Under the pieces are notes generated by a model. That model saw only the letters and a list, made by a program, of their open reading frames with translations, made no database searches and was not told the origin of the DNA. A stretch of DNA of 64,000 nucleotides from an uncultured delta proteobacterium (GTDB lineage: Bacteria; Desulfobacterota; RBG-13-43-22), in contig CAWBOS010000010.1 of the NCBI GenBank assembly GCA_963790475.1, positions 128,001 to 192,000 on the forward strand, in the 5' to 3' direction. Positions within the stretch are counted from its first letter, which is position 1. Every line of letters starts with the position of its first letter. Positions 6,447 through 10,446 of the stretch are shown here, piece by piece. The position numbers and the translations under genes were made by a program.

Positions 6447-6718
6447 CTTGGATCCTCCTTTCTCTTCTAAGAACGATTATTTTGAAGAGCTGCTCTTTAT
6501 GTCAAAAACTATATGAAGTCTTATTATAAGGATTGTAAAGGCTTTTGTAAAGGAGAGGGTTAATAATTTTTGGCTTGACAGGGTCCGAGGGAGGTGGGAG
6601 ATTTGGATGCAGGCAAGAGGCATGACGTTCTTAATAATACCTACTTTGAGTATTCGACACAATTTTGAATTTTGATTCCTGGATTCCTGAGGATAATTTT
6701 AAAATTGAAAGCCAATCC

Positions 6719-8635
6719 ATGAAACAGATTATTCTCGGTACTGCCGGACATATCGATCACGGCAAGACCAGCTTAGTTAAGGCCATGACCGGGATAGATA
6801 CCGACCGCCTTAAAGAGGAAAAAGAGCGGGGAATCACCATCGAACTGGGATTTGCCTATTTGGATCTTCCTAATGGCCAGCGTCTGGGAATTATCGATGT
6901 CCCCGGGCATGAACGTTTTATCAAAAATATGGTGGCCGGAGCCAGTACCATCGACCTGGTGGCCTTGATTATTGCCGCCGATGAAGGGGTCATGCCCCAA
7001 ACCAGGGAGCATTTGGATATTTGCACCCTCCTGGGTATTAAAAAAGGTCTGGTGGCCTTGACCAAAATCGACTTAGTCGAAGAAGATTGGCTGGATCTGG
7101 TTCAGGAGGATATCAAGGAATTCTTGAAGGGGACCTTTCTGGAAGGAGCTCCGATCCTTCCGGTCTCATCGGTTACCGGCCAGGGAATTTCTGAATTGAC
7201 GGTAGTCCTGGAAAGGCTTTCGGGCGAGGTAGAGGAACGTTCTTCTGCCGGCATCTTCCGGCTGCCGGTGGACCGGGTCTTTTCCATGCGCGGGTTTGGT
7301 ACGGTGATTACTGGTACGACCATGTCCGGCAGCCTGTCCGTGGGGGAGCAGGTTTATATTTATCCCCAGGAGATCCAGGCCAAGGTCCGCGGGATTCAGG
7401 TCCACAATCAGGATACTGAACAGGTCCGGGCCGGTCTGCGCACAGCCATTAATCTGCAAGGAATTGAAAAGGCCACTGTAAACCGGGGGGATGTGGTTGC
7501 CTCTCCTCTGAGTTTGTATCCGACCCGATTGTTGGATATCCAGGTGCGCTTACTGAAATCCATTCCCAGACCCTTAAAAAACAGGAGTCAGATACGTTTT
7601 CACAGCGGGACGAACGAAATCCTGGGCCGGGTTATCCTTCTGGAAAGCGAAGAAATAAAACCTGGCGAATCCCAGTTCTGCCAGATACGTTTCGGCGAAC
7701 CGGTGGCCTTGTTGCCCGGAGACCTGGCCGTAATTCGCAGCTATTCGCCGGTCCAGACCATTGGCGGAGCTGAGGTTTTGAATGTGAAACCGGGCAAGCA
7801 TAAACGTTTCAATCCCGAAGTGATTCATCAACTCCAGGTCCTTAAATCCGGCAGCGATTCGGAAAAAGTAGCCCTGCAAGTCCTCCAGAGCGGGGCAACC
7901 GGGGTGTCCCGGAAGAATTTGGGACAGGTCCTGCCCCTTCCCCCGAAAAAGTTGGATGACCTGCTCAAAGAGCTCCTTTTCCAGAAGGTGCTCGTTCAAT
8001 GGGACAAGGAAAATAAAATCATTATCCATCAACAGGAGTTGTTCAAGCTGAGCCAGGCGACCCGGTCGGAATTGGAAGGATATCATAAAGCCAATCCCTT
8101 AAAGTCCGGATTGTTTAAGGAAGAATTAAAATCCCGTCTGCCTCAAATTCGAGAGGCCAAACTTTTTAATTTTGTTTTAAATCAACTGGCCGAGCAGAAT
8201 ATTTTGGTTCAGGAAAAGGAACTGGTTCGACTGACAGACCATAAGGTGCAGTTAAAGGAAGACCAACAGGCGGTCCGGGATTCGCTGGAAAAGGTCTATC
8301 TAACCAGCGGCCTCCAACCTCCCTATTTCAAAGAACTGGCTGAAAAATTCGCCAAAGGGCAACCCCGGCAGGTTTTGGAATTGATGGTCAAGGAAGGAAA
8401 ATTAGTCAAGGTTAAAGAGGACCTTTATTTTCACAAACAGGCCATCGAAGATCTCAAAAGAAACCTGATCCAGTGGCTGAAGGAAAAAGGAGAAATCACT
8501 ACCCCGGAATTTAAAGATATGACCCAGACTTCGCGGAAATATACTATCCCTTTATTGGAGTATTTTGATGCTCTTCAGGTGACCATGCGGGTCGAGGACA
8601 AGCGGCTCCTTCGGGAGAGTAAGAAGTCGGTTTGA
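6719..8635 (+). CDS. selB: Selenocysteine-specific translation elongation factor
   Basis: [29 protein letters not shown] GTPase motifs; C-terminal winged-helix end [13 protein letters not shown]. Confidence 0.97.
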
Positions 8636-8904
8636 TTTCAAGCCGGATATCATTTAGCACTCTTCTTTTTAACCCTATAGAATTTTTCCGTGAGCCAAAG
8701 AAGACCCGTCGCATCAAATAAGACCCCATAGTCCCTTTTCCCTTTTGCTCAGACTACCCGGAATCACCGGACACATCAGACCGATGATTTTATTCGTCGA
8801 AATAGGTCTGTGGCCAGATAAATACTTCGAATTAAATATCCCTTGACTTACCCTATCCAAAAAAAATAGTATTCCTCCCAACAAAAAATGATAGGGAGGA
8901 ATGT

Positions 8905-9465
8905 ATGCGGCTTAAAGAACCCCGGGTGAAACCTTTGCCTGAATCGGAATGGACTGAAGAACAAAAAACGCTTCTTGAATATTATCGAAGAAAGTCCGGC
9001 AAGATATACAATATTTTTCTGACCCAGGCCCGACATCCTGAATTGATGAAAAAATGGAGGACCTTTTCCGATTATATCCTAAACCAAACCAGCCTTCCTG
9101 AAAGGGACCGCGAAATCCTGATATTACGTACCGGCTGGCTTTGCCAGTCGGAGTACGAGTTTGGACAGCATACCCGCATTGGAGAGAAGGCTGGGTTAAA
9201 ACCGGAGGAGATTGTAGAAATTACTAAAGGCCCCGATGCCCCGGGGTGGAGCCCTTTCGACTCTGCCCTGCTGCGGGCCGCGGATGAACTCCATGCCGAT
9301 GCCTTCATCTCCGATGTCACCTGGGATGTGCTGTCCAAGCGATACGACGAAAAGCAAATGGTGGATCTAGTCCTGACCGTAGGACAATATACCATGGTCT
9401 CCATGTTTCTGAATACCTGCGGCGTTCAGCTGGACCCCAAATTGGTCGGTTATCCTAAAGCCTGA
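8905..9465 (+). CDS. Carboxymuconolactone decarboxylase/AhpD-like family protein
   Basis: LPERDREILILRTGWLCQSEYEFGQH motif; ALLRAADELH. Confidence 0.85.
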   Translation: MRLKEPRVKPLPESEWTEEQKTLLEYYRRKSGKIYNIFLTQARHPELMKKWRTFSDYILNQTSLPERDREILILRTGWLCQSEYEFGQHTRIGEKAGLKPEEIVEITKGPDAPGWSPFDSALLRAADELHADAFISDVTWDVLSKRYDEKQMVDLVLTVGQYTMVSMFLNTCGVQLDPKLVGYPKA

Positions 9466-9478
9466 AGAGAACAATTCC

Positions 9479-9703
9479 ATGACGCCGATAATTATCTATG
9501 GAAAAGACGGCTGACCTTTTACCCGAAAGGCCCGTGAGACCTATCAGGCCCAAGGAAGAGAAATCTTATATTACAATCTTCCGGACCATCCGGAAAAGAT
9601 CGCAGAGTTCCTTTTATTTTCTCCGGATCGAAAGGTTCCGGTGGTCGTGGAAAATGGCCAGGCGATCATCGGATACGGGGGGACATGAAGGATAAAAAAT
9701 TAG
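9479..9703 (+). CDS. Glutaredoxin-like selenoprotein with two Sec (UXX-star-type), 74 aa
   Basis: MTPIIIYGKDG-U(TGA 9512-9514)-PFTRKARE...DRKVPVVVENGQAIIGYGGT-U(TGA 9686-9688)-RIKN-TAG; Grx motifs continue through the UGA; a SECIS-like hairpin follows each UGA; selB nearby. Confidence 0.85.
9515..9555 (+). promoter_or_regulatory. Candidate bacterial SECIS element for UGA 9512
   Basis: GGCC-cg-TGA-[GACCTA]-TCA-GGCC stem; G-first loop ~23 nt after UGA; lower CCTT/AAGG pairing. Confidence 0.6.
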
Positions 9704-9717
9704 GCCGGGTCCGGTTT
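9702..9717 (+). promoter_or_regulatory. Candidate bacterial SECIS element for UGA 9686
   Basis: AGGCCG-[GGTC]-CGGTTT hairpin; loop starts ~20 nt after UGA. Confidence 0.65.
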
Positions 9718-9972
9718 TAAAATCAACCGCCGTTTCGCTGTTTATCGCAATGGCTTCACCAGGATGACAAGATTGTTCGGACGACAAGCGGTTATTTTTG
9801 GGAGACGGGACAGGGATGTTTTCCTGGGCGAAGGACCTGCAAATAGTCGGGATTGAGATCGGGCAGGGGAAGGGTCTTCCTTAAAAATTCGGATTACCAA
9901 TCTAAATTTTCAAGGGGCACTGGGGAGAAGAAGGCTATGGATTGAACGGGAAAAAATTAGATTGTTTTATGT

Positions 9973-10446
9973 TCAGGTGACGTTGATATCGACAATTTCC
10001 AGGAGCCTCAATCCTCCCGGCGTTTTAACCTGAATTTCGTCCCCCGGTTCTTTTCCGATCAAGGCCCGGCCCAATGGAGAAAGGACGGAGATATCTCCAT
10101 CGTCGGCATTGGATTCATCCGGTCCGACCAGTCGGATTTTAAATTCATTGCCGGTATCCAAGTCGTTTAGAAGAACGGATGTGCCGAAGACGACCCGGTC
10201 TTCCGGCAAATCGGATATATCAATGATTTCGGAGACGGCGATCTTGGAGTGGAGTTCCGCTATCCGGCCCTCGATAAAACCCTGGCGTTCCTTGGCGGCG
10301 TGATATTCCGCATTTTCCGAAATATCCCCGTGAGACCGGGCCTCGGCGATGGCCTTGATAACCGCCGGCCGTTCGTCCCTTTCCAGTCGTTTTAGCTCTT
10401 CCCGAAGTCTTTCCAGCCCTTCCTTGGTAATCGGCGTCCGATCCAT
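9973..10446 (-). CDS. greA: Transcription elongation factor GreA
   Basis: MDRTPITKEG...AEARSHGDISENAEYHAAKERQ...SPLGRALIGK. Confidence 0.97.
   Translation of the reverse strand: MDRTPITKEGLERLREELKRLERDERPAVIKAIAEARSHGDISENAEYHAAKERQGFIEGRIAELHSKIAVSEIIDISDLPEDRVVFGTSVLLNDLDTGNEFKIRLVGPDESNADDGDISVLSPLGRALIGKEPGDEIQVKTPGGLRLLEIVDINVT

Follow-up and report, generated by a model that had tools for sequence, protein, structure and literature searches.

A predicted double selenoprotein of UXX-star family 1, with a putative insertion hairpin for each UGA, near selB in an uncultured Desulfobacterota genome

Background

Can a stretch of 225 nt for which no credible open reading frame (ORF) is listed encode a complete protein, provided that two in-frame UGA codons are read as selenocysteine (Sec)? 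This question is raised by a locus in the genome of an uncultured delta proteobacterium (GTDB lineage Bacteria; Desulfobacterota; RBG-13-43-22). The locus lies in a window of 64,000 nt (assembly GCA_963790475.1, contig CAWBOS010000010.1, positions 128,001 to 192,000 of the forward strand), and coordinates given without a contig are positions in this window. A preliminary description, made from the sequence of the window and a program-made list of ORFs, had read here a 74-aa glutaredoxin-like (Grx-like) protein with one Sec at the Grx active site and a second one close to the C-terminus. Here, the locus was examined by profile searches, comparison of homologous loci, RNA folding and structure modelling.

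Reading frame and coordinates

Translation of 9479-9703 (+) with TGA read as Sec was identical to the sequence quoted in the preliminary description and gave a gene of 225 nt, including the two recoded UGA codons (Table 1). Under translation table 11, the only same-strand ORF of at least 40 aa within the gene was an out-of-frame one of 65 aa (9498-9695), in agreement with the earlier statement that the ORF list held nothing credible at this place. Based on the comparisons set out below, 9479-9703 (+) very likely encodes a genuine 74-residue double selenoprotein with a glutaredoxin fold, an NF041114 orthologue in which both UGA codons would be decoded as Sec, each with a hairpin of its own. Two contigs from public RNA libraries covered 8900-9151, i.e., the 5' part of the upstream carboxymuconolactone decarboxylase/AhpD-like (CMD) family gene, and none fell on 9479-9717, which is neutral with regard to expression. 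Of eight other TGA-interrupted frames of the window that were compared with NCBIfam as well, one gave a match, confined to its ordinary metallo-beta-lactamase-fold part, and the other seven gave none.

Table 1. Features of the locus (window coordinates)
Feature	Position	Strand	Basis
Predicted coding sequence, 74-aa glutaredoxin-like double selenoprotein	9479..9703	+	ATG at 9479, TAG stop at 9701-9703; translation with TGA=U
UGA-1, predicted Sec12 in the U-P-F-T motif, glutaredoxin active-site position	9512..9514	+	TGA/Cys column in homologues
SECIS-like element 1, inside the coding sequence	9528..9550	+	conserved stem 9528-9532/9538-9542, loop CGUGA; alternative fold 9529-9550, loop GACCUA
UGA-2, predicted Sec70, directly after G-G-T, four residues before the stop	9686..9688	+	TGA in homologues, Cys in orthologues
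Four-codon tail R-I-K-N, then TAG stop	9689..9703	+	tail codons compared across 29 copies
SECIS-like element 2, 6-bp stem, GGUC loop 9708-9711	9702..9717	+	hairpin search, conservation, covariation
selB, selenocysteine-specific elongation factor	6665..8635	+	TIGR00475, 390.8 bits vs 242.25; SelB winged-helix domains
CMD (carboxymuconolactone decarboxylase/AhpD-like) family gene	8905..9465	+	Pfam CMD, 42.9 bits vs 23

Family membership

With Sec scored as Cys, the protein matched the HMM NF041114 ('UXX-star selenoprotein family 1') with 85 bits (cut-off 72) over profile positions 1-70 of 70, so that the UXX-star type, which had been named in the preliminary description, was confirmed. The umbrella subfamily model NF041212 was passed narrowly (66.5 bits, cut-off 66), and Pfam PF00462 (Glutaredoxin) scored 33.3 bits against 22.9. 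When the genome DNA was searched in six frames with NF041114, the locus reached 70.7 bits, just below the cut-off, because stops interrupt the match. UXX-star families 2 and 3 and the HUGP/GUXX-star fusion belong to the same superfamily as the protein and likewise have a C-terminal Sec behind a Gly-rich motif, but the protein's scores are well under the cut-offs of NF041211 (35.2 vs 100), NF047338 (39.5 vs 97), and NF045501 (30.1 vs 325). It is likewise no member of the glutaredoxin equivalog TIGR02181 (GRX_bact; 21.7 bits, cut-off 90).

The motif U-x-x-T at the N-terminal active site is present as U12-P-F-T, and the second Sec lies at the extreme C-terminus (U70 of 74), giving two Sec per protein. 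A literal U-X-X-stop ending is absent, with four residues following U70; that exactly two residues should follow the Sec is our own reading of the name UXX-star, and the HMM cut-off was used as the operational criterion. The window protein and the NF041114 family thus have in common a glutaredoxin-like fold, an N-terminal U/C-x-x-T, a C-terminal Sec directly after G-G-[TS], and two Sec. The local departures are small: R-I-K-N instead of two residues after the C-terminal Sec, and a selB-CMD-gene order that is confined to the genus of the window.

In a 2026 review (PMC13188914), the family is tabulated as 'Distant Grx-like protein 1' with the motif UxxT, 2 Sec, and the status 'Predicted with high confidence', and Haft & Tolstoy 2025 (mSystems) is cited there for other UXX-star families. 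No 'distant Grx-like' UxxT entry was found in passages of the main text of PMC2398784, the GOS paper to which the review refers for the family, and a full-text literature search returned no paper on glutaredoxin-like bacterial selenoproteins with a diselenide. The family is hence a known one, already having an NCBI model and an entry in PMC13188914, and no new class is opened by the window protein.

Sec and Cys at the two recoded sites

When 61 genomes (that of the window plus 60 relatives) were searched in six frames, matches at E ≤ 1e-5 were obtained in 39, 19 of them above the cut-off. From the 30 loci listed, 28 full-length homologues and one partial homologue (L038) were retained, L039 being left out as a different, single-Sec glutaredoxin; a search for related loci with the single protein yielded three distant loci, which were left out of the counts. 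All 28 homologues matched NF041114 at E ≤ 1e-10, and the closest relatives were 72-74% identical and had the same architecture. At the N-terminal site, where the alignment column is invariant C/U, the codon was TGA in 23 of the 28 and a Cys codon in the other five (L011, L018, L028, L034, L037). The C-terminal site was TGA in 28/28 full-length homologues and also in the partial one.

Cys at the C-terminal site was found in a wider profile search of a library of 1.84 billion representatives, in which 194 proteins matched at E ≤ 1e-10. Cys/Cys proteins among them end in T-C-G-V (P0007), Y-C-G-I (P0054), S-C-S-F (P0067), T-C-P-L-D-G (P0051), and K-C (P0020). The orthologues P0007, P0054, P0051, and P0020 score 75-108 bits on NF041114, with 84.6 for P0051, the tail of which comprises five residues after the Cys. 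Cys therefore alternates with Sec at both sites across the homologues, which is the classical criterion for Sec and the pattern that the preliminary description had proposed to look for. Many library relatives end exactly at G-G-T and are therefore considered to have been cut at the TGA by gene callers. In a collection of 5.8 billion proteins there were three close homologues, all of them fragments or ending at G-G-T.

A separate group of public gene calls carries Trp at both recoded sites (P0029, P0037, P0044, P0059, and others) and sometimes reads on through a TGA stop. This indicates contigs called with a code in which TGA encodes Trp, and thereby a source of mis-annotated selenoproteins.

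The tail after the second Sec

The codons behind UGA-2 were compared across 29 copies of the gene. In the distant copies, a stop (TAA, TAG, or TGA) follows exactly two codons past UGA-2 in 13/13 cases; six copies from sister genera of the same taxonomic family have a three-residue tail (K-[IL]-R); and in the genus of the window, nine of ten copies have four residues (R-I-K-N, R-M-K-I, K-V-K-I, R-I-T-I, etc.), all ten copies following the pattern [RK]-[IVM]-[KTR]-x. Whatever the length, the second residue after the Sec is V, I, M, or L in 29/29 copies, and it is encoded by nine different codons (GTA, GTG, GTT, GTC, ATT, ATA, ATG, ATC, and CTG). As judged from these codons, the tail is under constraint at the protein level, which is not expected if UGA-2 were the stop. 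Homologues ending at the second TGA had been named beforehand as evidence against the double selenoprotein; what is found instead is a short extension in frame, hydrophobic at its second residue throughout, and then a real stop. At L037 (G001), a locus of the window genus with Cys in the N-terminal position, the C-terminal Sec is followed by ten residues, and this longer tail passes through the hairpin.

Putative insertion hairpins

According to PMC13188914, a bacterial SECIS combines a 4-16 bp stem with a 3-9 nt loop that has a G in one of its first two positions and lies 16-37 nt after the UGA. Element 2 and both folds of element 1 comply with these values, as the preliminary description had held for its own hairpins. 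Those hairpins, each with a G-first loop (GACCTA; GGTC) about 20-23 nt after its UGA, both occur in the sequence, but the fold with the GACCUA loop is specific to the window, the relatives conserving the stem with the CGUGA loop instead.

The conserved 5-bp stem of element 1 corresponds to columns 17-21/27-31 after UGA-1, with the loop 18 nt past the UGA. In the 23 Sec forms, 104 of 115 stem cells pair (90.4%), compared to 13 of 25 (52%) in the five Cys forms. As this stretch also codes for the conserved residues A-R-E-A-Y, covariation in the element is modest. The copy of the window carries an Ala-to-Thr codon at residue 21 and, as a result, one C-A mismatch (9531/9539). Its alternative fold is the minimum free energy structure of 60 nt, with the GACCUA loop (9538-9543) 23 nt after UGA-1, a z-score of -1.39, and 20 of 200 shuffled sequences folding as well.

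The loop of element 2 lies 19 nt past UGA-2, and its 5' arm holds the A and G of the TAG stop, the remainder being located in the 3' untranslated region. Taken alone, the hairpin of the window is weak (-5.2 kcal/mol; 20 of 100 shuffles as good). Across the homologues, a hairpin loop begins 17-20 nt after UGA-2 in 29/29 copies in a search restricted to that region, whatever the length of the tail; the weakest copies are L026 (-3.5 kcal/mol) and L031 (-3.1 kcal/mol). By manual count, 28/29 copies have a G in the first two loop positions, and an unrestricted search places the best hairpin at this site with dG ≤ -5 in 24/29. The background for such a hairpin in the window amounts to 6/82 stops of long ORFs and 20/400 random TGA triplets.

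The stem sequences of element 2 are wholly different between lineages. Covariation was counted without gaps in the 15 copies with odd loops, the 14 copies with even loops, including that of the window, being left out as they were gapped by MAFFT. In these 15 copies, 90.8% of the cells pair, a share that is biased upward since the segments were anchored on each copy's own best hairpin, and 6 of 7 pairs change on both sides (36 cells). Slid registers gave only 15-45% pairing, and the covariation score was 0.961 compared to 0.229 for shuffled data, with 0 of 500 shuffles as high. RNAalifold on a MAFFT alignment of the 52-nt 3' regions returned no structure, because MAFFT lost the register of the hairpin, and an Rfam scan of 9300-9900 gave no family at E ≤ 10. 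Individually weak, both hairpins are real as predicted elements on the grounds of their conservation. The lack of conserved hairpins, which had been named as a possible objection, is hence not observed, as in the Sec forms each of the two UGAs has a hairpin behind it at a constant distance.

Fold and comparison with glutaredoxins

An AlphaFold2 model calculated from the 28-sequence alignment (mean pLDDT 93, pTM 0.81) has the order strand-helix-strand-helix-strand-strand with no helix after the last strand, the last block being less confident (pLDDT 79). The best Foldseek matches in the PDB were glutaredoxins and NrdH-redoxins (3IC4, 4TR1, 1H75, 3GRX; TMq 0.69-0.79), and a profile search of PDB sequences retrieved E. 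coli Grx3 (E 8e-11, positions 4-63). The modelled structure is accordingly a glutaredoxin (thioredoxin-type) fold without the final helix.

The same core and an active-site residue at the start of helix 1 are found in the classical glutaredoxins and NrdH, i.e., Grx3 (1FOV/3GRX) and NrdH (1H75) of E. coli, cGrx2 (4TR0/4TR1) of Clostridium, and Grx-1 (3IC4) of A. fulgidus (Foldseek TMq 0.73-0.76). Where dithiol glutaredoxins have C-P-Y-C, the window protein has U-P-F-T and thus no second Cys at +3. It further lacks the C-terminal helix, being 74 residues long compared to 76-110 in the Foldseek matches, and has an additional Sec at its C-terminal end. This Sec70 follows G-G-T after the last strand, at the point where ordinary glutaredoxins begin their final helix.

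A similar placement of Sec occurs in animal thioredoxin reductase, which ends in Gly-Cys-Sec-Gly. There, the redox-active Sec precedes the stop by a few residues, in a C-terminal tail that is flexible, so that the signal for its insertion lies beyond the stop codon, as it would in the window gene. The two proteins are otherwise different: the reductase has an unrelated fold, belongs to another domain of life, and uses another type of SECIS, and the partner of its Sec is the adjacent Cys, whereas in the window protein it would be the distant active-site Sec.

Sec machinery and gene neighbourhood

The presence of selA, selC, and selD had been proposed as a check, and selA, selD, and a tRNA-Sec are all found in the genome. 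The selA gene is intact (629.5 bits, contig C20), the tRNA-Sec scores 74.3 bits against a gathering score of 47, and selD (394 bits; G000 contig C10, 1969676-1970587, locus L007) has one in-frame TGA and is, by its sequence, predicted to be the selenoprotein form of selenophosphate synthetase. A second selA-like region (G000 contig C13, 443305-444664, in part in L006) is broken into four pieces that lie in different frames, and it contains one TAA; a pseudogene, an error of assembly, and DNA from a contaminant are possible explanations. The window's genome is rated 9.68% contaminated. On contig C10 (1440216-1440401, minus strand, L002), G000 also has a single-Sec glutaredoxin-type ORF with U-P-E-C and an ordinary C-terminal helix region, which is distinct from the UXX-star gene.

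The preliminary description had placed the gene beside selB. The latter is indeed near and on the same strand, but the CMD family gene lies in between. Since the CMD gene stops 13 nt before the ATG of the Grx-like gene on the same strand, the two are probably co-transcribed, and the CMD protein is a possible partner of the predicted selenoprotein. It has no C-x-x-C pair and a single Cys in the CMD domain (W-L-C-Q-S-E-Y-E-F-G-Q-H), and its score on TIGR01926 ('peroxidase-related enzyme') is 35.7 bits, below the cut-off of 81.8. Downstream of the Grx-like gene, the window has GreA on the opposite strand.

For the comparison of neighbourhoods, 95 of 111 ORFs of at least 90 aa from 29 loci were searched against Pfam, 16 having been dropped for overlap with the Grx-like gene or with a longer opposite-strand ORF. 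Among the ten loci of the window genus, selB occurs within 1.5 kb upstream in eight and the CMD gene directly upstream in seven. In the taxonomic family (16 loci), a membrane-fusion efflux gene (HlyD_3/HlyD_D23/CusB_dom_1) follows directly downstream on the same strand in 10, and the gene before the Grx-like gene is, in the sister genera, of the pyruvate:ferredoxin oxidoreductase gamma type. No recurring neighbour was found at 12 loci from other families of the phylum; the adjacency to selB is therefore a feature of the lineage and not of the protein family. At two loci of the window genus (L037 in G001 and L022 in G004), the place of selB upstream of the CMD and Grx-like genes is taken by a gene for a UbiE/COQ5-type methyltransferase.

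Proposed mechanism and alternatives

In the proposed mechanism, selA, selB, selC, and selD of the genome would decode both UGAs as Sec, each UGA having its own putative SelB-binding hairpin with an apical loop 18-19 nt downstream, the first within the coding sequence and the second overlapping the TAG and extending into the 3' untranslated region. In the protein, Sec12 at the N-terminus of helix 1 would be the nucleophile, because it occupies the glutaredoxin active-site position. Sec70, on a flexible Gly-rich tail replacing the last helix, could reach Sec12, and the protein would then cycle between a diselenol and an intramolecular selenenyl-selenide. It may be a redox carrier of very low potential whose partner could be the CMD/AhpD-like protein encoded next to it; alternatively, both selenols may chelate a soft metal. 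The mechanism put forward in the preliminary description, a catalytic Sec plus a resolving or transfer Sec, is plausible.

That the gene encodes a real double selenoprotein is, judging from the conserved sites, tail, and hairpins, true in all likelihood. Given this, a diselenide redox shuttle is a role with an about even chance, a function in the handling of metal or selenium is a more tentative one, and some other role is unlikely.

In the likeliest alternative, the two selenols do not cycle as a diselenide but bind a soft metal or metalloid as a pair of ligands, or carry selenium. We regard this as possible but rather doubtful. It would suit the efflux gene downstream in 10/16 loci of the taxonomic family and the location within 1.5 kb of selB in most loci of the genus, but the window itself has GreA in place of the efflux gene, neither neighbour occurs at any of the 12 loci outside the taxonomic family, and matches to HlyD and CusB domains are generic to membrane-fusion proteins. 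Additionally, the fold and the position of the active site are of the thiol-disulfide oxidoreductase type.

A narrower version concerns the genus of the window only, in which the longer basic tail (U-[RK]-[IVM]-[KT]-x) and the stable position next to selB and CMD could mark a dedicated component of selenium handling instead of a general redox protein. Such a protein would carry selenide or a selenenyl-selenide intermediate to SelD, or away from degraded selenoproteins, and if this were true, the two UGAs would make the protein's own synthesis a sensor of Sec supply. We consider it improbable.

Highly improbable is the explanation that only UGA-1 encodes Sec, while the second TGA is a true stop, T69 is the last residue, and the hairpin behind it acts as a transcription terminator. 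It would agree with the many homologues ended at G-G-T by gene callers, with the short U run that follows the hairpin of the window, and with the position of UGA-2 at the very end of the domain, where the model is less confident. The hydrophobic residue at +2, conserved with synonymous variation in every copy, and the stop two codons on in all distant copies speak against it, and so do the Cys orthologues ending in C-G-V, C-G-I, and C-S-F, from which it follows that a thiol/selenol residue at site 70 is part of the protein. Moreover, the distance between hairpin and TGA stays constant (17-20 nt) while the tail comprises 2 to 4 codons, most copies have no U-tract (3' flanks read by eye), and a terminator scan of 8500-10100 made no call here.

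It is scarcely credible that the window copy is decaying or non-functional on account of the C-A mismatch in a stem with all five pairs in 15 of 23 Sec forms, as its frame is intact, it retains every residue that is invariant in the 28-sequence alignment, L013, L014, L015, L017, and L023 likewise have 3-4 of 5 pairs (L020 has 2 of 5 in the same register), an alternative hairpin with a G-first loop is present, and the closest relatives share its architecture at 72-74% identity.

Conclusions

The double selenoprotein reading of 9479-9703 implies that a gene of 225 nt with two recoded codons, which standard gene callers cut or miss, can be recovered by reading the raw sequence. For the family, it documents variation in tail length (2, 3, and 4 residues) within one set of orthologues. 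In addition, it would contribute a well-documented natural example of a predicted bacterial hairpin for Sec insertion that shares bases with the stop codon, is otherwise located in the 3' untranslated region, and clearly covaries.
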